A stretch of DNA of 64,000 bases from an uncultured Gammaproteobacteria bacterium (GTDB taxonomy: Bacteria > Patescibacteriota > Microgenomatia > UBA8517). This document shows positions 27 to 63,534 of the stretch, one piece after another. Below the pieces are notes generated by a model. The model had not been told where the DNA came from. It searched no databases and saw only the letters and a program-made list of their open reading frames with translations. Positions within the stretch are counted from its first letter, which is position 1; each line of letters begins with the position of its first letter. The position numbers and the translations under genes are program-made. Location: positions 27,931-91,930 of the forward strand of contig CAYSAY010000001.1 in assembly GCA_964429215.1 (NCBI GenBank), read 5' to 3'.

Positions 27-2045
27 ATGTTTTCTGTATTGTCTTTGTATATCTTTCCCTACAGTTATTTATTATCTGCTGTATTTTTATCACTTGGAAC
101 TTTGATTAAACCTCAAGCAGCCTTTATTTTACCTGCAATTTTATACTTATTTGTTAAATCTGACATAAATAAATTATTTATTCAGAGAATATTTAAATTA
201 ATTAAATATTCTTTAGTTGGTTTAATTTTTTTTGTAGCTGGTTTTATTCCTTTTAATAACTCTTCTACTTTATATAATTTTATTCTTGAACGATTAACTG
301 TATCATCAGGACAGTATCCATATGGGTCTATAAATGCATTTTCTTTTTGGGGTCTATTTGGCTTCTGGAAACCTGACAACATTTCATTTTGGATAGGCCT
401 TTTGGTTTCTGTATTGTTTACTGCAGTGGTGTCAGTTTCTGTGTATAAAAAGAAAATTGATAACGGTCAGTATCAAATTGCTGCGTTGTCGCTTTTAATA
501 TTCTTTATGTTTTTGACAAGAATACATGAAAGGCATCTTTTGCCTGTACTTGCTCCTCTCTTGATTTCTTCGTTTGGTAATCCGGTATTACTTATTGCCT
601 ATCTAGGTTTGTCGTCAACGTATATTTTAAATTTATCATACTCATATTTTTGGATTACTGATAATTTTAAAGAGATATTTAATCCAACGCTTATTAAATT
701 TTTTATAATTACAAATTTAAGTTTGTTGATATTAACTGTGGTAACAATATTTAAAAAGTTTAAGTCCAAATTTGATTTGGTTGGGCTCTTTAAATTTAAG
801 TCTAATAAAACAAATACAATTAAAATAAATTCAATTGTTAAATTTCCAACGAAAGATATTACTAAAAAATATGCAAACATATTACTTTTTGCAGTTTTAT
901 TGTTTAGTCTCTTTACAAGAATTTACAATTTAGGAACACCTAAGGAAATGTATTTTGATGAAATATACCATTCTTTTACTGCTAGGTTAGTTTTGAATAA
1001 TGACCCAAAAGCTTGGGAATGGTGGAATCCACATCCAGAAGGTTTTGCTTATGAGTGGACCCATCCCCCATTATCAAAACTTGGCATGGCGTTGGCGATG
1101 TACATCGCTGGTGATAATTCTTTTGGGTGGAGGATACCGCAAGCTATTTTAGGAACCCTTTCAGTCCTTATGATTTACCTTTTGGCAAACGAAATATTTA
1201 AGGATAGAAAAACATCAATACTTTCAGCTTTTGTTTTTAGTTTAGATGGATTGCCTTTAGTGTTGAGTCGTATGGGAATGAATGATTCATATGTTTTGTT
1301 TTTTGCACTACTTTCAGTATATTTATTTATTAAGGACAAAAACTTTTTATCTTCGCTTGTTTATGGATTGGCGTTATCTTCAAAATGGTCTGCTCTTTAT
1401 GTCTTTCCTATTTTATTTATTTCTCATTTTGTGTTTAGAAAAAAGATTACTATTTCTTATCTCTCGTTTATCGTTTTCCCGATTGCAGTTTACATTGCAA
1501 GTTATGGAATTATGTTTGCAACTGGACATACTTGGGCGCAATTTATAGAGGTACAAAAACAAATGTGGTGGTATCATACTAGTCTTGTGGCGGAGCATCC
1601 TTATACATCACCTGCGTGGTCTTGGCCGTTATTATTAAGGCCTATCTACCTTTATGATGGACAAGAAATAAATGGGATGGTTGCAAGGATTTATGCTTTT
1701 GGAAATCCATTAGTTTTCTGGTTTGGATTTTTTTCAATCATCCTTTCTGGATTCATATCTTACAAAGAAAGGTTTAGAAAATTAGGTTTTGTCGTATTTT
1801 CATACCTTATTTTATTTTTGCCATGGATTGCTTCACCTCGTATTATGTTTTTGTATCACTATTTACCGTCTATTCCTTATATGGCGATTGCTGCAGGGTT
1901 TATATTACGTCGTTTTCCTAAAATTATCCCTTATCTATTAATTCCTAGTGTTCTTCTTTTTGTCTATTTTTATCCTCATTGGACAGGTATGAGAATACCA
2001 TTAAAGCTAGACGAGAGTTATTATTGGTTTGCTTCTTGGAGATAA
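27..2045 (+). CDS. Membrane glycosyltransferase, PMT/ArnT (GT39) family, with an extra N-terminal multi-TM region. The ORF is open to the window 5' edge, so it is probably 5'-partial.
   Basis: Motif FTRIYNLGTPKEMYFDEIYHSFTA contains the loop-1 DE motif of protein O-mannosyltransferases. It is followed by EWTHPPLSKLGMALAM and many TM helices. There is no in-frame stop between position 1 and the first ATG. Confidence 0.6.
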   Translation: MFSVLSLYIFPYSYLLSAVFLSLGTLIKPQAAFILPAILYLFVKSDINKLFIQRIFKLIKYSLVGLIFFVAGFIPFNNSSTLYNFILERLTVSSGQYPYGSINAFSFWGLFGFWKPDNISFWIGLLVSVLFTAVVSVSVYKKKIDNGQYQIAALSLLIFFMFLTRIHERHLLPVLAPLLISSFGNPVLLIAYLGLSSTYILNLSYSYFWITDNFKEIFNPTLIKFFIITNLSLLILTVVTIFKKFKSKFDLVGLFKFKSNKTNTIKINSIVKFPTKDITKKYANILLFAVLLFSLFTRIYNLGTPKEMYFDEIYHSFTARLVLNNDPKAWEWWNPHPEGFAYEWTHPPLSKLGMALAMYIAGDNSFGWRIPQAILGTLSVLMIYLLANEIFKDRKTSILSAFVFSLDGLPLVLSRMGMNDSYVLFFALLSVYLFIKDKNFLSSLVYGLALSSKWSALYVFPILFISHFVFRKKITISYLSFIVFPIAVYIASYGIMFATGHTWAQFIEVQKQMWWYHTSLVAEHPYTSPAWSWPLLLRPIYLYDGQEINGMVARIYAFGNPLVFWFGFFSIILSGFISYKERFRKLGFVVFSYLILFLPWIASPRIMFLYHYLPSIPYMAIAAGFILRRFPKIIPYLLIPSVLLFVYFYPHWTGMRIPLKLDESYYWFASWR

Positions 2046-2119: not shown

Positions 2120-2485
2120 ATGATATATAAAATTGCAGATCTTGAGGTATATAAGATGTCAATAGAATTATTAAAGGATCTATATATATTTTTAAAATCT
2201 GCACCCTCATCTGAATTTGATCTTTCGAAGAATTGTAAAAGAGCAGCCAAATCAATTCCTGCAAACATTGCTGAGGGCTTCGCTAAAAGAACTCATGAAG
2301 CAGTATTTAAGAATCACTTATTGATATCGCTCGGGTCTAGCGATGAGGTAATTGCGCATTTAGAAACATTGATTGCTGTAATTCCGAGATTAAATGATAA
2401 AGCCAGAATATTAATGTCTAAATATACTATTCTCTCGAAGAGATTGAATACACTTCATAAAAATTGGCACACTTATGCTTTCTAG
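2120..2485 (+). CDS. Four-helix-bundle protein (23S rRNA intervening-sequence protein / Avd-like family)
   Basis: 121 aa. Motifs KIADLEVYKMSIELLKDLY and ANIAEGFAKRTHEAVFKNHLLISLGSSDEVIAHLE are typical of the TIGR02436/PF05635 family. Confidence 0.6.
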   Translation: MIYKIADLEVYKMSIELLKDLYIFLKSAPSSEFDLSKNCKRAAKSIPANIAEGFAKRTHEAVFKNHLLISLGSSDEVIAHLETLIAVIPRLNDKARILMSKYTILSKRLNTLHKNWHTYAF

Positions 2486-7787: not shown

Positions 7788-9482
7788 ATGAACATGAAAA
7801 TATTAACAAATAAAATAAAATCACTTTTTCAAGATCAGCAGCACTCAGTACTTTCTGCAGCTACTTTAATTATGGTGATGATTGTCATATCAAGGCTGTT
7901 GGGTTTGGTTAGACAAAGAGTACTTGCTCATTTTTTTGAATCTAGTGACTTAAGTTTGTTTTTTGCTGCATTTAGATTACCTGATACTATTTTTGAAGTT
8001 TTGGTTTTTGGAACTTTTGCATCCGCGTTTATTCCTATATTTACCACAACACTTAAAAAATCAAAAGAAAATGCTTGGAAAGTTGCTGGAATTATTGCAA
8101 ATTGGGGTGGAGTAATTTTTATAGTTTTGGCTACTATTGTGGTTATATTTGCGCATCCTTTGTATAGAATAATAACTCCTGGGTTTAATTATTCTGATCA
8201 GGCAAAAATTGCCGATCTTGCAAGAATTCTTTTTGTGGCACAAGGGTTTTTTGTAATCTCGTATGTATTGACTGCAGTCCTTGAGTCATCCAAACGATTT
8301 TTTGTACCTGCTTTAGCACCACTTTTTTATAACCTTGGAATGATACTTTCTACGATACTATTTGCAGATAAGTTGGGACTTTATGCCCCTGTAATTGGTG
8401 TAGTAGTGGGATCGGCAATGCATTTTTTTATCCAATTGCCACTTGCCATTAAACTTGGGTTTAGATTTAGTAAGGCGTTTACTCTTACGCCTGAAGTAAA
8501 AAAAATAGCCAAATTATCACTTCCTCGCATTGCAGAGGTTTCTTTCTTGCAAGTTGCTAAATTTGTTGAGCTCACGTTAGCGAGCCTAATTTCTGTCCCT
8601 GCGTACACTTATTTTACCTTTGGAAACACAATTCAACTATTGCCGGTTGGGCTTTTTGGTACTTCAATTGCAAAAGCTGCTCTTCCTACACTTGCAAGAC
8701 AAGCTGACGACCTTCCTGCATTTAAGAAGACTTTGTTTGAAACGCTAAATCAAGTTATATTTTTAATGGCACCCATTGTTGCATTTTTGATGGTCGCAAG
8801 GGTTCCAGTTGTAAGACTTATTTTTGGAACTGATATCTTTACTTGGAATGCTACAGTTGAAACATCCCTTGTTGTGTCTGCCTTTGCTTTTGGAATATTT
8901 TCTCAATCAATTAATTCAATCCTAGCAAGGTCTTTTTACGCATTATCAGACACAAAAACTCCTGTAATTGTTTCGGTTTCTACATTAATTTTAAATATTG
9001 TTATGGACTATATATTAGTAATTGTATACAAGCTTCCAGTTTGGAGTTTGGCAGCTGCGTTTTCTGTTTCATGCATTATTCAATCCGTAATACTTTTTGT
9101 ACTAATAACAAATAGAATTCATGATGGTGCAAAGAAAAGTTTATACATCCCAGTTTTGAAAATGTTTTTTTCAGGTTTAGTTTCAGGGAGCACTATGTTT
9201 TTCATATTAAAGTTTTTTGATAAATCTGTTTGGCTTAAGAAAATATCCTTTATCTCAAACCTTGATTTGCCGTTTGAGAAGTTTGTATTAGACACTAGGT
9301 ATGCTGGAAATTTATTGATGTTGACTGCGATCGTAGGTTTAATAGGTGTTGTTGTTTATATAATAGTTTTAAAATTATTAAAATCAACAGAGCTTGATAC
9401 ATTCATAAATTTATTTAAAAGAATGCTTCGTGGTCAAAAGTTTTCTACCGTATCAAATACTGAACAAACATTGGAGAGTTAA
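7788..9482 (+). CDS. murJ: Lipid II flippase MurJ (MviN)
   Basis: 564 aa polytopic membrane protein. N-terminal SAATLIMVMIVISRLLGLVRQRVLAHFFESSD is the MurJ signature. Confidence 0.8.
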   Translation: MNMKILTNKIKSLFQDQQHSVLSAATLIMVMIVISRLLGLVRQRVLAHFFESSDLSLFFAAFRLPDTIFEVLVFGTFASAFIPIFTTTLKKSKENAWKVAGIIANWGGVIFIVLATIVVIFAHPLYRIITPGFNYSDQAKIADLARILFVAQGFFVISYVLTAVLESSKRFFVPALAPLFYNLGMILSTILFADKLGLYAPVIGVVVGSAMHFFIQLPLAIKLGFRFSKAFTLTPEVKKIAKLSLPRIAEVSFLQVAKFVELTLASLISVPAYTYFTFGNTIQLLPVGLFGTSIAKAALPTLARQADDLPAFKKTLFETLNQVIFLMAPIVAFLMVARVPVVRLIFGTDIFTWNATVETSLVVSAFAFGIFSQSINSILARSFYALSDTKTPVIVSVSTLILNIVMDYILVIVYKLPVWSLAAAFSVSCIIQSVILFVLITNRIHDGAKKSLYIPVLKMFFSGLVSGSTMFFILKFFDKSVWLKKISFISNLDLPFEKFVLDTRYAGNLLMLTAIVGLIGVVVYIIVLKLLKSTELDTFINLFKRMLRGQKFSTVSNTEQTLES

Positions 9483-10417: not shown

Positions 10418-10442
10418 CAACTGTTGGCACTCAATGTATATT
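10414..10442 (+). promoter_or_regulatory. Sigma70-like promoter (TTGACA-17-TATATT) for hrcA-grpE
   Basis: TTGACA at 10414-10419. Then a 17-nt spacer. Then TATATT at 10437-10442. Confidence 0.6.
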
Positions 10443-10450
10443 AGTGCTAA
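10424..10450 (+). promoter_or_regulatory. CIRCE operator (HrcA binding site)
   Basis: TTGGCACTC-N9-TAGTGCTAA has one mismatch to the consensus TTAGCACTC-N9-GAGTGCTAA. It overlaps the promoter. Confidence 0.8.
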
Positions 10451-10483
10451 CCTCGATTAAATCGGGGTAAATATCAATTTATT

Positions 10484-11721: not shown

Positions 11722-11746
11722 CAACGTCTTAGCACTCGTTGTATAT
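11717..11746 (+). promoter_or_regulatory. Sigma70-like promoter for dnaK-dnaJ
   Basis: TTGACA at 11717-11722 and TATATT at 11741-11746. About 50 bp are near-identical to the hrcA promoter. Confidence 0.6.
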
Positions 11747-11754
11747 TAGTGCTA
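11728..11754 (+). promoter_or_regulatory. CIRCE operator
   Basis: TTAGCACTC-GTTGTATAT-TAGTGCTAA. Confidence 0.85.
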
Positions 11755-11791
11755 ACTTCGATTTAATCGGAGCTAATATAAATTAAATAAT

Positions 11792-14675: not shown

Positions 14676-15233
14676 ATGGAACCTACAACTCAAGTTACAC
14701 CTAATCCAACTCCAGTTGTACCTGTTTCGCCTGTTACGCCTGCAGTTACATCAATACCTGTGTCTAATCCTGTGCAGGAAGTTCAATATGCAACTACTGG
14801 ATCAAGAATATTGGCAAGTATTATAGATGGTGTAGTTATTGCAATTCCTACATTTATAATTAGTTTTATTATTGGGTTTATAACTTCTGCTGTCAGTGTA
14901 AATAGTGCCGATACTACATTAGCAACTATGATTAGTTTTATAACTAATTTAATTGTCTATGTGCTAACTCAAATATATTATGTTTACTTTATTGGATCAA
15001 AAGGTCAAACAGTCGGTAAGATGGCAATGAAAATTAAAGTTGTAAAAGAAGATGATAATTCAGTACCAGGTTATGGATCAGCATTTTTAAGAGAAGTAAT
15101 AGGAAAGTTGCTTTCATCAATAGTTTTCTCACTTGGGTATTTCTGGATGATATGGGATGTAAAGAAGCAAGGTTGGCATGACAAGATAGCTCATACAATT
15201 GTAGTTAAAGTTCAAACTTCAGATTTGAAGTAA
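14676..15233 (+). CDS. RDD family membrane protein
   Basis: GQTVGKMAMKIKVV ... GWHDKIAHTIVV, typical of RDD proteins. Confidence 0.6.
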   Translation: MEPTTQVTPNPTPVVPVSPVTPAVTSIPVSNPVQEVQYATTGSRILASIIDGVVIAIPTFIISFIIGFITSAVSVNSADTTLATMISFITNLIVYVLTQIYYVYFIGSKGQTVGKMAMKIKVVKEDDNSVPGYGSAFLREVIGKLLSSIVFSLGYFWMIWDVKKQGWHDKIAHTIVVKVQTSDLK

Positions 15234-40095: not shown

Positions 40096-40350
40096 ATGAC
40101 AAGCACAGTTATTTTTAAAATTGATTCTAAATTAAAACAAGAGGCACAACAAACCGCTGAAGGTTTGGGATTAACTTTAACTTCTGTTATGAATAATTAT
40201 CTTGTTGATTTTGTAGAAAAGAAATCAGTTTCTTTTGGTAAAACAAAATTTATTGATCCATACGGATCAATGTCTGGTGGGCCAATTTCAGAAAAAGAAA
40301 TTAAAAGTTTTTCCTTAGCTTGGCAAAAAAGAATACAAAAAATTGGATAG
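40096..40350 (+). CDS. RelB/DinJ-family antitoxin
   Basis: MTSTVIFKIDSKLKQEAQQTAEGLGLTLTSVMNNYL is DinJ-like RHH. The ORF track start at 40066 is GTG, and ATG at 40096 is more likely. Confidence 0.6.
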   Translation: MTSTVIFKIDSKLKQEAQQTAEGLGLTLTSVMNNYLVDFVEKKSVSFGKTKFIDPYGSMSGGPISEKEIKSFSLAWQKRIQKIG

Positions 40351-40729
40351 CTATATATTAGATACACATGCATTAATTTGGTATATTCGAGGATTTAGTA
40401 CTATCTCTCTAAAATCAAAGAAAATAATTCAAGAGATATTTGAAGGAAACGCAAATTGTTATATTTCTACAATGGTTGTACTCGAAGCATTTTATGTGAG
40501 CTTAAAACATAGCGATTTCATTTATTCTAATTTTTTAAAGATAATTGATAAACCAAACATTAAAATTGTTTCATTTGACAAAAAAGTATTAAATCAGTCC
40601 GTTGAGCTTCCAGAAAAAATGGATATTCACGATAGAATAATTGTGGCTACAGCAATTATTACCAATACCCCATTAATAACAAAAGACAAGATTTTAAGAG
40701 CTAATTTTCCAAATGAAACTATTTGGTAA
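40343..40729 (+). CDS. vapC: PIN-domain toxin (VapC-like)
   Basis: ILDTHALIW...DRIIVATAIITNTPLITKD. Overlaps the antitoxin by 8 nt. Confidence 0.7.
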   Translation: MDSYILDTHALIWYIRGFSTISLKSKKIIQEIFEGNANCYISTMVVLEAFYVSLKHSDFIYSNFLKIIDKPNIKIVSFDKKVLNQSVELPEKMDIHDRIIVATAIITNTPLITKDKILRANFPNETIW

Positions 40730-40747: not shown

Positions 40748-41359
40748 ATGCAAGAAAATCAAACACAATTACCAGTAAATCAATCAATCAGTGAGACAGT
40801 GATTCAGACAGAACAGTTGCCAAAGAAAAGTAATTTTCTAGTTATCTTGTTATCTAGTTTACTAATTATCTCGCTTGCAATCGCAGGTTTTTTTGCCTTC
40901 CAAACACAAAAACTTGTTAAAGAGTTAACTTTATTACGAATTGAACCAACACCTGTTGTTACTGCAGAACCAACAATTGAGCCAGTTGCAACTAATAGTG
41001 CAACTCCTGATTTAATAGCAACTCCAAAATCGATCGTAAACTTATTTGATGCGATTAATAAAAACTTTAATTTGAGTCTAGTACAAATTGCAGAAAATCA
41101 ATTTTATTCGCCTACTGGAATGATTTCTAAAAAATCGTGGAAAATAGATCTTGTAAATTCAAATCTTGGGAAATCATTTACAACATATATAGCAACCCAA
41201 TTGAGTCCAAACTTTTCTGAATCTGCTGGAGGTGGTGGTGGGGGTGTAGATGCATATGAAAACAGTTTAATTAAATGTTTCCACGTGTATGGTTTTAAAA
41301 GCGGTGATCCAACAAATTGGAAAGATCCTTTTAATTATTTATCCTGTGCTGAAAAATAG
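40748..41359 (+). CDS. Membrane-anchored hypothetical protein (paralog of 22797-23408)
   Basis: Shares the TM and LVKELTLLR segment with the paralog. Confidence 0.45.
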   Translation: MQENQTQLPVNQSISETVIQTEQLPKKSNFLVILLSSLLIISLAIAGFFAFQTQKLVKELTLLRIEPTPVVTAEPTIEPVATNSATPDLIATPKSIVNLFDAINKNFNLSLVQIAENQFYSPTGMISKKSWKIDLVNSNLGKSFTTYIATQLSPNFSESAGGGGGGVDAYENSLIKCFHVYGFKSGDPTNWKDPFNYLSCAEK

Positions 41360-49771: not shown

Positions 49772-50086
49772 ATGCCATTTGAATTTTCACGCAATTATGG
49801 ACCTACTAAAGGTAAACTTAAAACTGTTCAATCTGGATTAATAGTATTACCTGGCAAAAAGGAAATTTTATTAGAAGAAGCAACACATGTCGGGCATGGT
49901 CAAATTTTTGATAGTGTAACCGTTAGGGGAAGAGGAATTTGGATTAATAGGGGGCATGTTGATAAAGGGAATGACAAACCAATAATTAAAAGAGGTGGAC
50001 GTCATGCTTTACTAAAGAGAGGTGAAACAGTAATCGTTAATTTTGATGGTCTTGAAAAAGAGGTTGAAATTACTAGTGTCAATTAA
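49772..50086 (+). CDS. Hypothetical 104-aa protein inserted between rpsG and fusA
   Basis: Basic, with a beta-rich pattern (KRGGRHALLKRGETVIVNFDG). I recognise no family. Confidence 0.35.
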   Translation: MPFEFSRNYGPTKGKLKTVQSGLIVLPGKKEILLEEATHVGHGQIFDSVTVRGRGIWINRGHVDKGNDKPIIKRGGRHALLKRGETVIVNFDGLEKEVEITSVN

Positions 50087-50151: not shown

Positions 50152-52320
50152 ATGGCAGAAGAAGCAAAGAAAAAGTCCGCAATGGTTATGACGGCTACCA
50201 AAGACCGTAATGTTTCGTTGGACAAAATTCGAAATTTAGGAATCATTGCTCACATTGATGCAGGTAAAACTACAACAACAGAAAGACTACTTTTTGAAAC
50301 AGGTAGAACTTATAAGCAAGGATCTGTTGATGATGGAACTACAGTTACTGACTGGATGGTTCAAGAAAGAGAAAGAGGAATTACAATTGTCTCAGCTGCA
50401 ATCACAGCATTCTGGGATTTACAACAAGAAGCATCTGTAGAAAAAGGGCACTACAGAATTAATTTAATTGATACCCCAGGACACATTGATTTTACTGCTG
50501 AAGTTGAGAGATCTCTTCGCGTATTGGATGGAGCTTTAATGGTCTTTGACGGTAGAACTGGTGTTGAATCACAATCTGAAACTGTTTGGAGACAAGCTGA
50601 TAAATACAAAGTTCCTAGAATTTGTGTACTGAATAAACTTAATTTAATAGGTGCTGACTTTGATGGTTCTATTGCCTCAATCAGAGAAAGACTAAAGGCC
50701 AACGCTTCTCCTGTTACTTACCCAATTGGTCAAGAACATGCACATCGTGGAGTAATTGACCTTATCAAGATGAAAGCCTTTACATATAAAGCAGTTGAGG
50801 ATGCAAAATTAACTGAAGAAGAAATTCCAGCTGATCTTCTTGAAACTGCCAAGAAATATAGAGGAGAATTACTTGATGCTATTTCTGAATTTGATGATGA
50901 TACACTAGCTAAATATTTAGAAGGTGTAGAACCAACTGAGGTAGAAATTAAAAGAGCAATTAGAAAAGGTGTTATAACCGGTAAATTCTTCCCAGTCTTT
51001 GGTGGAGATAACAGATCTGCAGAGTCCCAACTTTTACTTGATGGTGTAGTCCAATACTTACCATCCCCAATCGATCTTGAACCAATTGAAGGAACTAATG
51101 CAAAGACAGGCGAAATTGAGCACAGAGAAAGAAATAATGAAGCTCCATTTTCAGGTATAGCTTTTAAAGTTGTTACAGATCCACATGTAGGAAGGCTTCT
51201 TTATGTTAGAGTTTACTCAGGAATATTAAAGACTGGTCAGACTGTTTATAATGCAAATAAACAAATTTCAGAAAGAATAGGAAAACTTGTTCTACTTCAT
51301 GCTGATCAAAGAGAACTAATTGAAGAAGCATATGCAGGAGAAATAGTTGCAGTTGTCGGTATGAAAGATACAACTACAGGTCACACTATTTGTGATCCAG
51401 CACATCCTATCCATTTGGAGTCAATTAATTTCCCAGAGCCAGTTATTTCTCTTGCAATTGAACCTGCAACAAAGGCTGATCAAGAGAAGATGGGCTTGGC
51501 ATTAAACAAACTTTCTGATGAAGATCCAACATTTAGAATTAAGAGTAATCCTGAAACAGGTCAAACTATTATTGCAGGAATGGGAGAGCTTCAACTTGAA
51601 GTTTTAGTAGATAGAATGAAAAGAGAGTTTAATGTTGTTGCAAATACTGGAGCTCCACAAGTTGCTTATAAAGAAACAATTAAGAAATATGCAGAAGGTG
51701 AAGGAAAGTATATAAGACAAACTGGTGGTCGTGGACAATATGGGCACTGTCTTATCAAGGTTGAACCTCGTGGACGTGGTGAAGGTTTTGAATTTAAATC
51801 TGAAATTAAAGGTGGAGCAATCCCACAAGAATATATTCCAGCAATTGAAAAGGGTATTAGAGAGAAACTTGAAAATGGTATTATGGCAGGTTATCCAATG
51901 GTTGATGTCCGCGCAATTGTTTATGATGGATCCTATCATGATATTGATTCTTCAGAAATGTCCTTTAAGATTGCAGGTTCCTTAGGTGTTGAAGATGCTA
52001 TAAAGAAGGCTGATATGTGCCTTCTTGAGCCTATTATGAAGGTTGAGGTATTTACCCCAGCTGAATATATGGGAGACGTCATGGGAGATTTGTCTAGTAA
52101 GAGAGCACAAATTTCAGGAACTGAAGAAAAAGCAGGAGAAACTGTTGTTCTTGCAACTGCACCACTTGCAGAACTATCAGGTTACGCAACAAAATTAAGA
52201 TCACTTACACAAGGAAGAGCAAGAGCCTTTGTAGAACCTTCTCATTATGAAGAAGTTCCAAGCCACATTGCAGCACAAATAGTTGCAAAAGCTGGAAAAG
52301 TTGAGATGGTTAGAGGATAA
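50152..52320 (+). CDS. fusA: Elongation factor G
   Basis: AHIDAGKTTTTE, DTPGH and 722 aa. Confidence 0.95.
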   Translation: MAEEAKKKSAMVMTATKDRNVSLDKIRNLGIIAHIDAGKTTTTERLLFETGRTYKQGSVDDGTTVTDWMVQERERGITIVSAAITAFWDLQQEASVEKGHYRINLIDTPGHIDFTAEVERSLRVLDGALMVFDGRTGVESQSETVWRQADKYKVPRICVLNKLNLIGADFDGSIASIRERLKANASPVTYPIGQEHAHRGVIDLIKMKAFTYKAVEDAKLTEEEIPADLLETAKKYRGELLDAISEFDDDTLAKYLEGVEPTEVEIKRAIRKGVITGKFFPVFGGDNRSAESQLLLDGVVQYLPSPIDLEPIEGTNAKTGEIEHRERNNEAPFSGIAFKVVTDPHVGRLLYVRVYSGILKTGQTVYNANKQISERIGKLVLLHADQRELIEEAYAGEIVAVVGMKDTTTGHTICDPAHPIHLESINFPEPVISLAIEPATKADQEKMGLALNKLSDEDPTFRIKSNPETGQTIIAGMGELQLEVLVDRMKREFNVVANTGAPQVAYKETIKKYAEGEGKYIRQTGGRGQYGHCLIKVEPRGRGEGFEFKSEIKGGAIPQEYIPAIEKGIREKLENGIMAGYPMVDVRAIVYDGSYHDIDSSEMSFKIAGSLGVEDAIKKADMCLLEPIMKVEVFTPAEYMGDVMGDLSSKRAQISGTEEKAGETVVLATAPLAELSGYATKLRSLTQGRARAFVEPSHYEEVPSHIAAQIVAKAGKVEMVRG

Positions 52321-52342
52321 GCTTCACTTCGTGAAATTTTTA

Positions 52343-52388
52343 ATTTTCAATTTCCAATTTTCAATTAATTCTCAATTATTCAATTTTT
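52343..52388. repeat. Short tandem array of (t)tcaatt units
   Basis: ttttcaatttccaattttcaattaattctcaattattcaattttt. Confidence 0.7.
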
Positions 52389-52495
52389 AAATCAACATAT
52401 TTCAGCCAGTTTTCCATTTACTTTTGCAAAACACCACATAAATATATTTTAGCATTTTTTTGATTTTTTAAGTTTGCCATGCTACACTCTTTCGA

Positions 52496-52849
52496 ATGAA
52501 AATTTTAGTTATTGAGGATAATGAAATTGCTCGCATGGCTATTGCAGCTTTTCTTAGAGGCCATGAAATCGAGTTAGCTTCTACTTTAAATGATGGTCTT
52601 GAAGGCCTTAAAAAAGAACCTGATTTAGTAATCACTGATTGGAATTTAGGTAATGATACAAATACTGCAGACATTGTTGATTATTGTTTGGAAAAAGGAA
52701 TTAGAGTTGTAATTCAAACTGGCAGTCCATTTGCAGACGATTTAGATGAAATGAGAAGTCGAGGCATAGAAATTATACATAAATTAGATTTACGCAACGA
52801 AATAAAAGGTAACATTGAAAATATCGGTAAATCTGGCGTTGAACGCTGA
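52496..52849 (+). CDS. Stand-alone response-regulator receiver (CheY-like) domain protein
   Basis: IEDNE acidic pocket, phospho-acceptor D in LVITDWNL, T in VIQTG and K in IIHKLD. Confidence 0.65.
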   Translation: MKILVIEDNEIARMAIAAFLRGHEIELASTLNDGLEGLKKEPDLVITDWNLGNDTNTADIVDYCLEKGIRVVIQTGSPFADDLDEMRSRGIEIIHKLDLRNEIKGNIENIGKSGVER

Positions 52850-52857
52850 TTTACCCG

Positions 52858-52887
52858 TTGACAGATAGAAACAATATAAAATATAAT
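52858..52887 (+). promoter_or_regulatory. tuf promoter (TTGACA-18-TATAAT)
   Basis: TTGACA at 52858-52863 and TATAAT at 52882-52887. A second aaaatataatacaa copy lies about 50 bp downstream. Confidence 0.5.
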
Positions 52888-52950
52888 ACAATCTCTTGAG
52901 GCAGAAAGATGCCTCTTGTTTATTGAAGAGTAACAAAATATAATACAACT

Positions 52951-54153
52951 ATGGCAGCAGATACAAAACAAAAATTTGATAGAACAAAGACCCATTTAAA
53001 CATTGGTACAATTGGTCACGTTGATCACGGCAAGACCACATTAACAGCTGCTATTACTACAGTACTTGCAAAAAATTTCCCAGGCGGTGTAAACAAAGCT
53101 TATGCCTTTGACCAAATCGATTCAGCTCCAGAAGAAAAACAAAGAGGAGTTACTATCAACATTGCTCACGTTGAATACGAAACAGCAAAAAGACACTATG
53201 CTCATATCGATGCTCCAGGTCATGCTGACTATATCAAGAACATGATTACAGGTGCAGCACAAATGGACGGAGCAATATTGGTTGTTTCAGCTCCAGATGG
53301 ACCAATGCCTCAAACAAGAGAACATGTAATTCTTGCAAGACAAGTTAACGTCCCATGTTTAATGGTCGCATTAAACAAATGTGACGCAATGGATGATCCA
53401 GAACTTTTGGAATTAGTTGAAGCAGATATTAGAGAATTATTAAACAAATATCAATTCCCAGGAGACACAACCCCAATTGTCAGAGTTTCAGCTCTTAAAG
53501 CTCTTGAAGGTGATGCAGAAGCAGAAAAAGGAATCTTAAAGTTGATGGAAACTGCAGATGAATTTATCCCAGATCCAGTAAGAGATACAGAAAAACCATT
53601 CTTAATGCCTGTTGAAGACGTATTCTCAATTTCAGGAAGAGGAACAGTTGTTACTGGAAGAGTTGAAAGAGGAGTAATCAAAGTTAATGAAGAAATCGAA
53701 ATCATTGGTATTAAAGCAACTGTAAAATCAGTTGTTACAGGTCTTGAAATGTTTAGAAAGTTACTTGATTCTGCAATGGCAGGAGACAATGTAGGTGTTC
53801 TTTTAAGAGGAATAGATAAAGAAGCTGTTGAAAGAGGACAAGTTTTAGCAAAAACAGGTACAGTTACACCACATACCGAGTTCGAAGCTGAAGTTTATAT
53901 CTTAAGCAAAGATGAAGGTGGAAGACACACACCATTCTTTACAGGTTACAAACCACAATTCTTTATTAGAACAGCAGATATTACAGGAGATGTTAAACTT
54001 GCAGAAGGTGTAGAAATGGTTATGCCAGGAGATTCAGCTAAGATGACAGTTAAACTTATTGTACCTATTGCTATGGAAGAAGGATTAAGATTCGCAATTC
54101 GAGAAGGTGGTCACACAGTAGGTGCTGGAGTTATCACCAAAATCATAGCTTAA
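52951..54153 (+). CDS. tuf: Elongation factor Tu
   Basis: [23 protein letters not shown] and 400 aa. Confidence 0.97.
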
Positions 54154-54495: not shown

Positions 54496-54765
54496 ATGGG
54501 TGAAAGAGATAAAAAAGACTATTTAATTTCTAATAAAGAAAGAAAAAAGGTAGATAGTGGACTTTTTATGGGACGTATAGCAATTGCACTTGGTTATTTG
54601 GAGGGCATCAGAACTAAAGGGGTTACTTTAAACGAGTACCACAAAACATTTATGTCTACGTTAGACGGTACGGATTATGAAGCTTATTCTAAAATGCATA
54701 CGAGTGTATATGATTTTTTAAAGAAAAACGCTAAATTTTTTAAAATTAAAGTTGGAGAAGACTAA
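54496..54765 (+). CDS. Hypothetical 89-aa protein between rpsJ and rplC
   Basis: No recognised motif. Followed by an intrinsic terminator. Confidence 0.3.
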   Translation: MGERDKKDYLISNKERKKVDSGLFMGRIAIALGYLEGIRTKGVTLNEYHKTFMSTLDGTDYEAYSKMHTSVYDFLKKNAKFFKIKVGED

Positions 54766-54788
54766 TATTGAAAGGAATTATTAAATTC

Positions 54789-54828
54789 AAGATGAAGTAT
54801 GTTGTTTTCTTTCTTCATCTTTTTTTAA
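54789..54828 (+). terminator. Rho-independent terminator (aagatgaag-loop-cttcatctt plus T6)
   Basis: 9-bp stem followed by ttttttaata. Confidence 0.6.
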
Positions 54829-54982
54829 TATTGTTGCGGCAACTTCAGCAGCTTTATCGTGCTTAACAAGTAACACAGGTGCTTCCCCGGAATTCTTACC
54901 TGCTAGAGTTGGGACTTTAACTAATGCTACTGTTTCCTTTTCATTTGTCATCTTGTGCGTATTATACATTGAAAGCGTTGCT

Positions 54983-55010
54983 TGATACAATCAGATTAGT
55001 TTGATATAAT
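54983..55010 (+). promoter_or_regulatory. Promoter for the rplC cluster (TTGATA-16-TATAAT)
   Basis: TTGATA at 54983-54988 and TATAAT at 55005-55010. Confidence 0.5.
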
Positions 55011-55787: not shown

Positions 55788-56385
55788 GTCATATACAATT
55801 AAAGGTACTGCTAAAGAAGATGTTACTCTTCCTAAAGAGTATAATCTTGATCGTTCAGTAAGCTTAATAAAGCAGGCAGTTAGGGTTTATGAAGATGGAA
55901 CTCACTTTGGTTTGGCTAGAGTTAAGACAAGAACAGAAGTGAACGTTTCAAGAAGGAAAATTTACAAACAAAAAGGAACAGGTGGAGCAAGACATGGTGC
56001 TAAATCTGCACCAATTTTCGTCGGTGGAGGAGTTGCCCATGGACCAAAAGGAGTAAAAAGATTTTTGAGCTTACCTATTAAAATGAAGAGATTGGCGTTT
56101 TTATTAGCTCTTTCTAAAAAGGTAGCTTCTAAAAAAGCAATTATTGTAGAAGGACTTGGAAAAGTTAAAAAGACAAAAGAAGCAAATGAAGCTATAATGG
56201 CTTTGAAAAAAGTAGCTGATATAAAATCAAAAGTATTAGTAGTTCTTTCAACTGCAAGCTATGACAAAGCTAAGTTTTTTAAAAATATTAAAGATTGTGA
56301 AGTTAGAAACTTTAATGATTTGAATGCCTTTTTAGTTGTTAGAAAAAGTTTGATATTAATTGATAGTGAAGTGTTTAGAAAATAA
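55777..56385 (+). CDS. rplD: 50S ribosomal protein L4
   Basis: Sequence and synteny. Confidence 0.9.
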   Translation: MKAKSYTIKGTAKEDVTLPKEYNLDRSVSLIKQAVRVYEDGTHFGLARVKTRTEVNVSRRKIYKQKGTGGARHGAKSAPIFVGGGVAHGPKGVKRFLSLPIKMKRLAFLLALSKKVASKKAIIVEGLGKVKKTKEANEAIMALKKVADIKSKVLVVLSTASYDKAKFFKNIKDCEVRNFNDLNAFLVVRKSLILIDSEVFRK

Positions 56386-56386
56386 T

Positions 56387-56680
56387 ATGAAATTTATACC
56401 TATATTTACAGAAAAGAGCATGAATCAATCCAAGAATGGACAATATTCATTTTGGGTTTTACCTGAATTTAACAAAAATCAGATTAAAAATTATTTAGAG
56501 ACAGCATTTGATGTAAAAATTGCAGATATAAAAACAATTAATTATAAAAAAATGATTGGTAGGTCTCAAAGAGGAATTGTAAAAACTATATCAGCAAAGA
56601 AGAAAGTATTGGTTACCTTAAAATCAGGAAAGATAGAATTGTTTGATACTGAAACAAAAGAAAAAGGAGCTAAGAAATAA
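56387..56680 (+). CDS. rplW: 50S ribosomal protein L23
   Basis: MKFIPIFTEKSM.... The start is trimmed from the ORF-track start at 56360. Confidence 0.85.
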   Translation: MKFIPIFTEKSMNQSKNGQYSFWVLPEFNKNQIKNYLETAFDVKIADIKTINYKKMIGRSQRGIVKTISAKKKVLVTLKSGKIELFDTETKEKGAKK

Positions 56681-62635: not shown

Positions 62636-63166
62636 ATGAGAAATAATAATTATCAACAACCAGAAAGAGAATTTTCAGAAACTGTTGTTCAAATAAACAG
62701 AATTTCTAAAAAAACTAAAGGTGGAAACCAAATAAGGTTTGGTGCAGTTATTGTACTAGGTGATAAAAAGGGAAAAGTGGGTGTAGGAAACTCTAAAGCT
62801 CATGATGTTAGAAACGCTATAAGGAAAGCAATTGAGGATGCTAAAAAGAATATGGTTAAAATTACCATGAGAGGTACAACTATTCCTTATTCAGTTATTG
62901 CAAAAATAGGTGCATCTAAAGTTATGTTAAAGCCTGCACCTCCTGGATCAGGTATTATTGCAGGTGGACCTATGAGAGTTGTATTGGAGTCTGCAGGTGT
63001 TCGTGATATTGTAGGTAAAACTTTAGGCAGTAACAATAAAATTTCTAATGTTAGGGCTACAATTCTTGCTTTAGTTATGTCAACAAAAATGTTAGAAAAG
63101 AAAAATTATATGAATGAATCAAGAGAAACAAAAAAAGAAGTACTTAAAGAGAAAGGAAGTAAATAA
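62636..63166 (+). CDS. rpsE: 30S ribosomal protein S5
   Basis: Sequence and synteny. Confidence 0.93.
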   Translation: MRNNNYQQPEREFSETVVQINRISKKTKGGNQIRFGAVIVLGDKKGKVGVGNSKAHDVRNAIRKAIEDAKKNMVKITMRGTTIPYSVIAKIGASKVMLKPAPPGSGIIAGGPMRVVLESAGVRDIVGKTLGSNNKISNVRATILALVMSTKMLEKKNYMNESRETKKEVLKEKGSK

Positions 63167-63534
63167 TGTCACAGAAACGATTAGGTAGAGGATATGGAAG
63201 TGGAAAAGGTGGCCACACTTCTAGTCGTGGACAAAAAGGTCAAAAATCTAGAACAGATGTACACGTACTTTTTGAAGGATTAAAAGTTAAAAAATCGACA
63301 ATTAAAAAGTTTCCTCTTCTTCGTGGAAAGGGAAAGTTTTTAGCCAAAATTAAACCAATTACAATTAATGTCTCTAAATTAGATATGTTTAAAAAAGGCG
63401 ACACTGTTTCAATTGAATCACTTATTAAAAACAAGATTGTTTCTAAAGTTGATGCTTACAAATACGGAGTTAAAGTTTTAGGTAATAGTGAACTTAAGAA
63501 GGATTTAAAGTTTGAAGTTCCAGTTTCAAAATGA
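63166..63534 (+). CDS. rplO: 50S ribosomal protein L15. It directly abuts rpsE, so there is no L30 gene.
   Basis: GRGYGSGKGGHTSSRGQKGQKSR. Overlaps the rpsE stop. Confidence 0.85.
   Translation: MSQKRLGRGYGSGKGGHTSSRGQKGQKSRTDVHVLFEGLKVKKSTIKKFPLLRGKGKFLAKIKPITINVSKLDMFKKGDTVSIESLIKNKIVSKVDAYKYGVKVLGNSELKKDLKFEVPVSK

Follow-up and report, generated by a model that had tools for sequence, protein, structure and literature searches.

Single-domain receivers are a well-known kind of signalling protein, and CheY of Escherichia coli and Vibrio chemotaxis, Spo0F, LovR, CpdR and DivK all consist of a lone receiver domain. In the str operon, which holds fusA (elongation factor EF-G) and tuf (EF-Tu), secondary tuf promoters lie inside or after fusA in E. 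coli (tufA) and in Gram-positive bacteria. Integration and recombination hotspots between conserved core genes are a general concept. Here, we analyzed a 64,000-nucleotide (nt) stretch of contig CAYSAY010000001.1 (hereafter the window, 64 kb), in which a gene for a stand-alone receiver protein of 117 amino acids (aa), hereafter REC, lies between fusA and tuf. The fusA–tuf spacer is a hypervariable slot between two extremely conserved genes, and REC occupies it in nine lineages. We read REC as an accessory stand-alone phospho-switch, served by an unlinked kinase or a small donor and long resident in a permissive slot; our rough probability for this reading is 55%.

The stop codon of fusA at 52320 and the start of tuf at 52951 bound a 630-nt interval whose single plausible gene is the 117-aa open reading frame (ORF) 52496–52849 on the plus strand. 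Window genes were annotated by Pfam scans, and related loci are designated by L numbers. The features of the interval and its flanking genes are:

50152..52320, plus strand: fusA, EF-G, 722 aa, with Pfam EF-G domains; the variable slot is bounded on its left by the fusA stop codon.
52335..52387, no strand assigned: degenerate heptamer array AATTTTC/TTCAATT (Tandem Repeats Finder: period 7, 7.9 copies, 74% matches).
52392..52439, minus strand: remnant of a decayed small gene (MWCFAKVNGKLAEIC*), which is an intact 68-aa ORF in L042.
52460..52488, plus strand: predicted REC promoter, TTGATT, 17 nt, TGcTACACT (extended -10), ending 7 nt before the ATG.
52496..52849, plus strand: REC, stand-alone receiver protein, 117 aa.
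52858..52887, plus strand: predicted tuf promoter P1, TTGACA, 18 nt, TATAAT, matching the consensus at 12 of 12 positions, with the first copy of AAAATATAATACAA.
52898..52925, plus strand: hairpin GAGGCA/TGCCTC followed by a U-rich tract, a terminator-scan match between P1 and P2.
52916..52944, plus strand: predicted tuf promoter P2, TTGTTT, 17 nt, TATAAT, with the second copy of AAAATATAATACAA.
52951..54153, plus strand: tuf, EF-Tu, 400 aa, by Pfam.

An earlier sequence-only reading had described a complete 117-aa receiver with all catalytic residues between fusA and tuf, and this description is borne out by the ORF, its modeled fold and its residues. Pfam Response_reg (PF00072) matches REC at 27.0 bits, under the gathering cut-off of 30.2 and over residues 3–53 only, while two relatives (P0020 and P0023) carry precomputed PF00072 matches; the low score of REC is a matter of divergence, not of another fold. 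An AlphaFold2 model, built with 12 family sequences as input, has a mean predicted local distance difference test (pLDDT) score of 85 and the canonical (βα)5 architecture from β1-α1 to β5-α5, with residues 111–117 forming a disordered tail. By Foldseek the model matches solved receiver domains at template modeling (TM) scores of 0.65–0.74, among them the LovR-type 2msw, the PhyR receiver, DesR, Spo0F and NtrC1, and the family profile retrieves CheY, PhoB and Spo0F from the PDB at E about 1e-9. The receiver phospho-chemistry set is complete (E7/D8, D48, T75 and K96). Across the 12 family members compared, D48 is invariant, T75 and K96 are present in at least 90%, and the acidic pair is DD in the relatives. 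The family is marked by DLVITD48-W-x-L, T75, K96 and a disordered tail with -ER as its usual end. Judged by its residues and modeled fold, REC is a real, intact single-domain receiver gene, predicted to accept a phosphoryl group. Neither Pfam nor the model gave a DNA- or RNA-binding domain, and since REC lacks an output domain it must act by protein contacts or phosphotransfer. No NCBIfam subfamily model came near its cut-off, and PADLOC returned noise only (E of at least 0.002), with no match to a toxin–antitoxin or defence family.

A search of 5.8 billion proteins recovered only one identical copy of REC and three orthologues of about 58% identity. In all, four orthologues of about 58% identity and six further family members at 28–41% identity retain the catalytic residues; these distant members share TDW at the phospho-Asp, T75 and K96, and mostly end in -ER. 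An exhaustive profile search of 1.84 billion cluster representatives gave 316 matches at E ≤ 1e-3 and 6 at E ≤ 1e-10, and the family is a very small and very divergent corner of the receiver superfamily. Scanning GTDB species representatives with the REC alignment gave generic receivers only, among the matches listed. REC is a new, very divergent family within the single-domain receivers, and a literature search turned up neither an account of the family nor one of a receiver gene between fusA and tuf. All members that we found belong to a clade of Woesebacteria-like Microgenomates, within the candidate phyla radiation (CPR, or Patescibacteria). The ratio of non-synonymous to synonymous divergence (dN/dS) was 0.19 between L002 and L003, the only unsaturated pair, and 0.15–0.41 for other pairs, which indicates that REC is under purifying selection.

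In all nine lineages with readable DNA, REC lies inside the fusA–tuf gap; a tenth lineage (P0007), for which gene positions but no DNA were at hand, stood outside the neighbor check. The arrangements are:

Window, L002, L003 and L013–18: fusA-REC-tuf; EF-G identity to the window 88–97%.
L038 (NCBI assembly) and L040/41: fusA-REC-tuf; EF-G identity about 80%.
L043–45: fusA-REC-tuf; EF-G identity 72%, EF-Tu identity 74%.
L039: REC ends 8 nt before the same tuf P1 promoter; EF-G not seen.
L042: REC downstream of fusA; EF-G identity 83% over 59 aa.

The same family at the same address in nine lineages means that REC is not a one-genome accident. The sequence-only reading had proposed looking for the insertion in related genomes, and had held that restriction to a single genome, with REC decayed in relatives, would mark it as incidental; we found it in nine lineages and found no decayed copies. 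REC identity to the window protein is 58% within the crown clade and 30–43% for distant hosts, and the REC stop codon lies 8–10 nt from the -35 element of P1.

REC-less loci were sought in metagenome contigs by the conserved promoter–hairpin string TATAATACAANNNCTTGAGGCA. The search returned 17 loci, all immediately 5' of tuf genes with 90–99% amino-acid identity to that of the window, and all 17 lack a REC gene. Between fusA and tuf these loci have gaps of 136 nt (L030, empty) up to more than 2.2 kb, filled with unrelated ORFs. By Pfam, this cargo includes a YafQ/RelE/ParE-like toxin with a ribbon-helix-helix antitoxin, a PIN protein with a RelB-like antitoxin, a split IS1595 transposase and a Schlafen AlbA_2 protein; the remaining ORFs have no Pfam match. 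Similarity between loci ends at the fusA stop codon, with divergence directly after it in 17 loci, and returns some 10 nt upstream of the P1 -35 element; other cargo genes likewise end right at P1. A hidden Markov model of the REC family detected no remnant in the REC-less gaps (best E 2.5, versus 1e-38 or better for positive controls), so a gap either has REC intact or lacks it without trace. Neither an integrase nor repeats nor att-like sites were seen beside REC.

The histories of REC and its flanks differ. REC-bearing loci are mixed with REC-less ones in a tree of the tuf 5' region, and the nearest neighbors of the window (L021, L026 and L030) lack REC. L003 and the window are 96.7% identical in fusA and 58% in REC, whereas L002 and L003 are 91% identical in fusA and 90% in REC, with a synonymous divergence (dS) of 0.69 for fusA and 0.27 for REC. 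Such discordant divergence of REC and fusA suggests cassette exchange.

Other junctions of the str/S10 cluster also carry extra genes. The sequence-only reading had placed REC in one of the most conserved gene strings in bacteria, rpsL-rpsG-fusA-tuf; REC does sit between fusA and tuf, but the string is also interrupted between rpsG and fusA, by a 104-aa ORF (49772..50086, plus strand) with no Pfam, NCBIfam or PADLOC match. At the same junction L003 has a DUF559 protein, and L031, L033 and L034 have gaps of 0.4–1.1 kb; the rpsG–fusA junction looks like a second cargo slot. Between rpsJ and rplC (S10–L3) lie two unannotatable ORFs, one of 89 aa (54496..54765, plus strand) and one of 67 aa (54787..54990, minus strand). 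The 89-aa ORF has a homologue at this junction in L034 (34% identity), and L026 has a 2.8-kb gap between S10 and L3. In this clade the str/S10 cluster shows its junctions to be cargo hotspots bounded by ultra-conserved genes.

Downstream of REC, the sequence-only reading had reported a duplicated tuf -10 element. Two exact 14-mers are indeed present; they belong to two tandem tuf promoters that are the same in the 17 REC-less relatives. The 14-mer AAAATATAATACAA occurs exactly twice in the 64 kb, at 52878 and 52935, against a chance expectation of 0.25 (3 of 100 shuffles reached two matches), and both copies are conserved in 20 related loci. P1 is the only 12/12 promoter match in 48–56 kb, and in 21 loci, whether they have REC or lack it, its spacer is always 18 nt. 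The P2 -10 element ends 6 nt 5' of the tuf ATG, as in leaderless-type starts. Its distance from the -35 element is 17–18 nt in every locus, while in distant loci the -10 box lies 9–29 nt from the tuf ATG, several of these loci having a TGn extended -10. Because the P2 -10 tracks the -35 and not the start codon, it behaves as a promoter element rather than a ribosome-binding signal, and P2 would give a leaderless tuf mRNA.

The hairpin between P1 and P2 folds at -10.3 kcal/mol (z = -2.6). Across loci its stem is kept while the loop varies, with G-U changes in L026 and L030, and in distant loci the stem is GAGGGC/GCCCUU. RNAalifold recovered the hairpin from 20 tuf leaders, with no two-sided compensatory pair and with the distant sequences misaligned, so support for the hairpin comes from stem-versus-loop conservation, G-U changes and indels. 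Rfam gave a chance SAM-II match only (E 0.84) on the fusA–tuf spacer. The hairpin is a putative intrinsic terminator for REC and upstream transcripts, and for P1 transcripts it may be an attenuator or a stem-loop that protects the 5' end; the window also encodes RNase J. The P1-hairpin-P2 module is the same in loci with and without REC, and it belongs to tuf, not to REC. Two further structural features were seen. The tuf leader of L023 (minus strand, about 8270–8350) has a nested hairpin GCGGAG...CTCCG in the loop, with the outer stem kept. At 52892..52930, and in the same region of L024, L033, L038 and L040, the CCUCUU 3' arm can pair with a downstream AAGAG(G), both sides changing together in L038 (CCCUU/AAGGG); this pairing could be an alternative structure overlapping the P2 -35 element and spacer.

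The sequence-only reading had REC embedded in the translation-factor operon. In the window its start follows a 175-nt gap after fusA and has its own predicted extended -10 promoter, which does not support that claim. In L014 the corresponding arrangement is TTGACT-17-TACAAT-8-ATG, and in L014, L038, L040 and L043 a -10 box lies 6–8 nt before the REC ATG; in L002 and L003, REC starts 10 nt after the fusA stop codon, with no clear promoter. Across the window, 17 of 43 genes have a -10-like hexamer that ends 6–9 nt 5' of the start codon (background about 0.6 per offset; examples are the starts at 14676, 20434, 27597, 33895, 40748, 52951 and 54184), and a Shine-Dalgarno sequence precedes only two of the 43, rpoC and fusA. 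From these counts, the genome appears to rely mainly on leaderless-type gene starts, a pattern that supports the predicted REC promoter. A literature search returned no description of leaderless starts for Woesebacteria or CPR bacteria.

Upstream of REC, the sequence-only reading had seen an AT-rich tcaatt repeat array belonging to the gene. The array exists, but it is not that of REC. Among other REC loci it occurs only in L042 and is absent from L002, L003, L014, L038, L040 and L043. In L042 the array-homologous DNA overlaps the 3' end of the intact minus-strand 68-aa ORF (226..432). The start of the window remnant, MWCFAKVNGKLAE, is identical to this ORF at 12 of the first 13 residues, and the 3' region is also homologous; about 160 nt between them have been deleted, and the remnant has an early stop codon. 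Thus the array lies beside a decayed cargo gene, of which it is partly a component, and is not a control element of REC. A hairpin just 3' of fusA (52323–52335) was not significant (-2.7 kcal/mol, z = 0.08).

A partner kinase, for which the sequence-only reading had recommended a search, was not found in the 64 kb window: neither the window nor the flanks of related loci contain a histidine kinase, Hpt or che gene. Reported histidine-kinase frequencies are lowest in CPR bacteria (PMC10805038), and a literature search on kinases in Woesebacteria returned nothing specific. If REC is a stand-alone phospho-switch, D48 would be phosphorylated by an unlinked histidine kinase or by a small donor such as acetyl phosphate, and the phosphorylated protein would bind a protein partner differently, in the manner of other single-domain response regulators. 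REC would form its own small transcription unit, which is predicted from sequence only to start at the extended -10 as a leaderless mRNA and to end at the hairpin and U tract between P1 and P2. Cassettes would swap by homologous recombination in the conserved flanks, and REC would be the longest-resident cargo of the fusA–tuf slot, lost or replaced many times. Since the tuf module does not differ between loci that have REC and loci that lack it, a long stay in a slot that is permissive and well transcribed accounts for the position of REC better than wiring to the elongation factors does.

Several points weigh against this account of REC as accessory cargo. Its fusA–tuf address is kept down to 72% EF-G identity, which is unusual for accessory cargo, and REC adjoins P1 also wherever the gap holds other cargo (window, L039 and L042); deep synteny and P1 adjacency could reflect functional coupling to tuf. 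The REC promoter of the window matches the consensus at only 8 of 12 positions, below the scanner threshold, and the promoter and terminator assignments are consensus-based, drawn from the sequence alone. The GTDB scan, which covered the matches listed, may have missed genomes and says little about absence of REC from species representatives. Moreover, the deep REC-bearing lineages were found via REC and the REC-less loci via a crown-clade DNA pattern, so that ancestral presence with losses and repeated gains are not separable here. The coupled alternative is that REC, once phosphorylated, binds RNA polymerase at the tuf promoters, the ribosome, EF-Tu or EF-G and so adjusts the activity or expression of the elongation factors, which would be why it stays beside tuf. 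Besides the occurrence of REC in the fusA–tuf gap of all nine readable lineages (to 72–74% EF-G/EF-Tu identity) and its close approach to P1, it gains from the scarcity of signalling genes in CPR bacteria, since one that is retained probably matters. However, 17 close relatives, including the nearest by tuf, lack REC yet have an identical P1-hairpin-P2; other cargo genes end right at P1 too; REC has no domain for binding DNA or RNA and evolves fast (58% identity where EF-G has 97%); and no EF-Tu position separates REC-bearing from REC-less crown lineages, although this is a weak test. The conserved neighborhood is the only argument for the sequence-only proposal that signal-dependent control acts on, or arises from, elongation-factor expression, and we consider a translation-coupled regulator unlikely. 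That the REC family is a phosphorylation-dependent modulator of elongation or of tuf transcription, acting via the -ER tail or the α4-β5-α5 face, seems to us quite doubtful; if true, it would give kinase-poor, ultra-small bacteria a direct signalling input into protein synthesis and would explain why REC stays beside the tuf promoter across deep divergence.

The company that REC keeps raises a different possibility, namely that REC is a recently mobile cassette that has repeatedly entered a preferred site in independent events, comparable to the toxin–antitoxin and transposase cargo. The slot does hold mobile-type cargo, REC is scattered among crown-clade lineages, and its divergence is discordant with that of fusA, REC dS being below fusA dS between L002 and L003. 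Against this, no integrase, repeat or att-like site flanks REC, the family has never been seen in another genomic context, REC divergence broadly tracks host divergence, and its composition matches that of the host (G+C content 0.32–0.33, near that of neighboring genes); recent mobility is accordingly a poor bet. The lack of a kinase or Hpt gene in the window and related-locus flanks, the few kinases of CPR bacteria, and the absence from REC of the CheY aromatic switch residue and K-P motif would all suit a phosphorylation-independent pseudo-receiver, in which the fold is a constitutive adaptor or scaffold that needs no kinase. Yet the five phospho-chemistry residues are conserved although the family is otherwise only 28–41% identical, which would be unexpected if phosphorylation were irrelevant, and we regard a pseudo-receiver as improbable indeed. 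The Pfam score under the gathering cut-off could even be taken to mean that REC is a chance ORF in an AT-rich spacer and not a gene. Conserved orthologues, purifying selection, a confident receiver fold and PDB profile matches led us to reject this idea, whose probability is close to nil.

With signalling genes so scarce in CPR bacteria, an orphan receiver that is conserved is conspicuous, and its constant place next to tuf makes REC a testable candidate for a link from signal to growth machinery in uncultured organisms. If REC is ordinary cargo, it illustrates that a conserved position beside essential genes can come from a permissive, recombination-prone slot and not from shared function. 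New here are the conserved address of REC and the cargo-slot behavior of the str/S10 junctions.

The 90% cluster mates of the EF-Tu, EF-G and S7 proteins of the window are named Candidatus Woesebacteria, Microgenomates group or Patescibacteria group, and the related contigs come from 0.1-µm groundwater filtrates. At 62636..63534, L15 directly follows S5, with no L30 gene between them. An S5-L15 order without L30 is typical of CPR bacteria, so the window fits such a host. Other observations in the window are independent of REC. CIRCE-like (controlling inverted repeat of chaperone expression) inverted repeats TTGGCACTC-N9-TAGTGCTAA lie 5' of hrcA and dnaK (about 10430–10480 and about 11735–11790), the usual HrcA heat-shock operator arrangement. 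A PIN-domain gene (40343..40729) and a 203-aa ORF (40748..41359) stand directly 5' of rpoB, in the usual place of rplJ-rplL. G+C content falls to 0.24–0.27 over the end of rplD and rplW (56050..56650), where about 0.35 is usual for the window. A member of the 23S rRNA intervening-sequence protein family (PF05635) is encoded at 2120..2485, with no rRNA gene in view. Rfam at gathering score gave no match over the whole 64 kb, and hence no tRNA, ribosomal-protein leader or riboswitch.

REC resembles CheY in being a single-domain receiver of about 120 aa with the acidic pair, Thr and Lys, and in having Trp after the phospho-Asp (D57-W58-N-M-P in CheY, D48-W-N-L-G in REC); CheY is also among the best named PDB sequence matches of the family (E about 3e-9). 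Unlike CheY, REC has Ile/Val at the position aligned with the aromatic switch Y106 and no Pro after K96 (K109-P110 in CheY), scores at most 23 bits with the NCBIfam CheY equivalog PRK10610 against a cut-off of 189, and has no che genes nearby in the window or at related loci. Spo0F, LovR (2msw), CpdR and DivK, which are among its top structural and sequence neighbors, share with REC the lone receiver domain whose output runs only via protein contacts or phosphotransfer. By contrast, no phosphorelay, LOV-kinase or ClpXP context is visible at REC, and only the REC family has the conserved -ER C-terminus and the fusA–tuf location. As in E. coli tufA and Gram-positive tuf, where tuf has its own strong promoter or promoters downstream of fusA and so reaches higher expression than the remaining operon genes, tuf in the window has P1 and P2, which agree with this picture; here, however, a terminator-like hairpin lies between the two tandem promoters, and the position of P2 suits a leaderless mRNA. 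Lastly, the fusA–tuf slot is like an integration or recombination hotspot in being a short, sharp-edged interval between conserved genes that holds differing accessory genes in close relatives, but its flanks are translation-factor genes within the str/S10 cluster, and one cargo, REC, persists across deep divergence.

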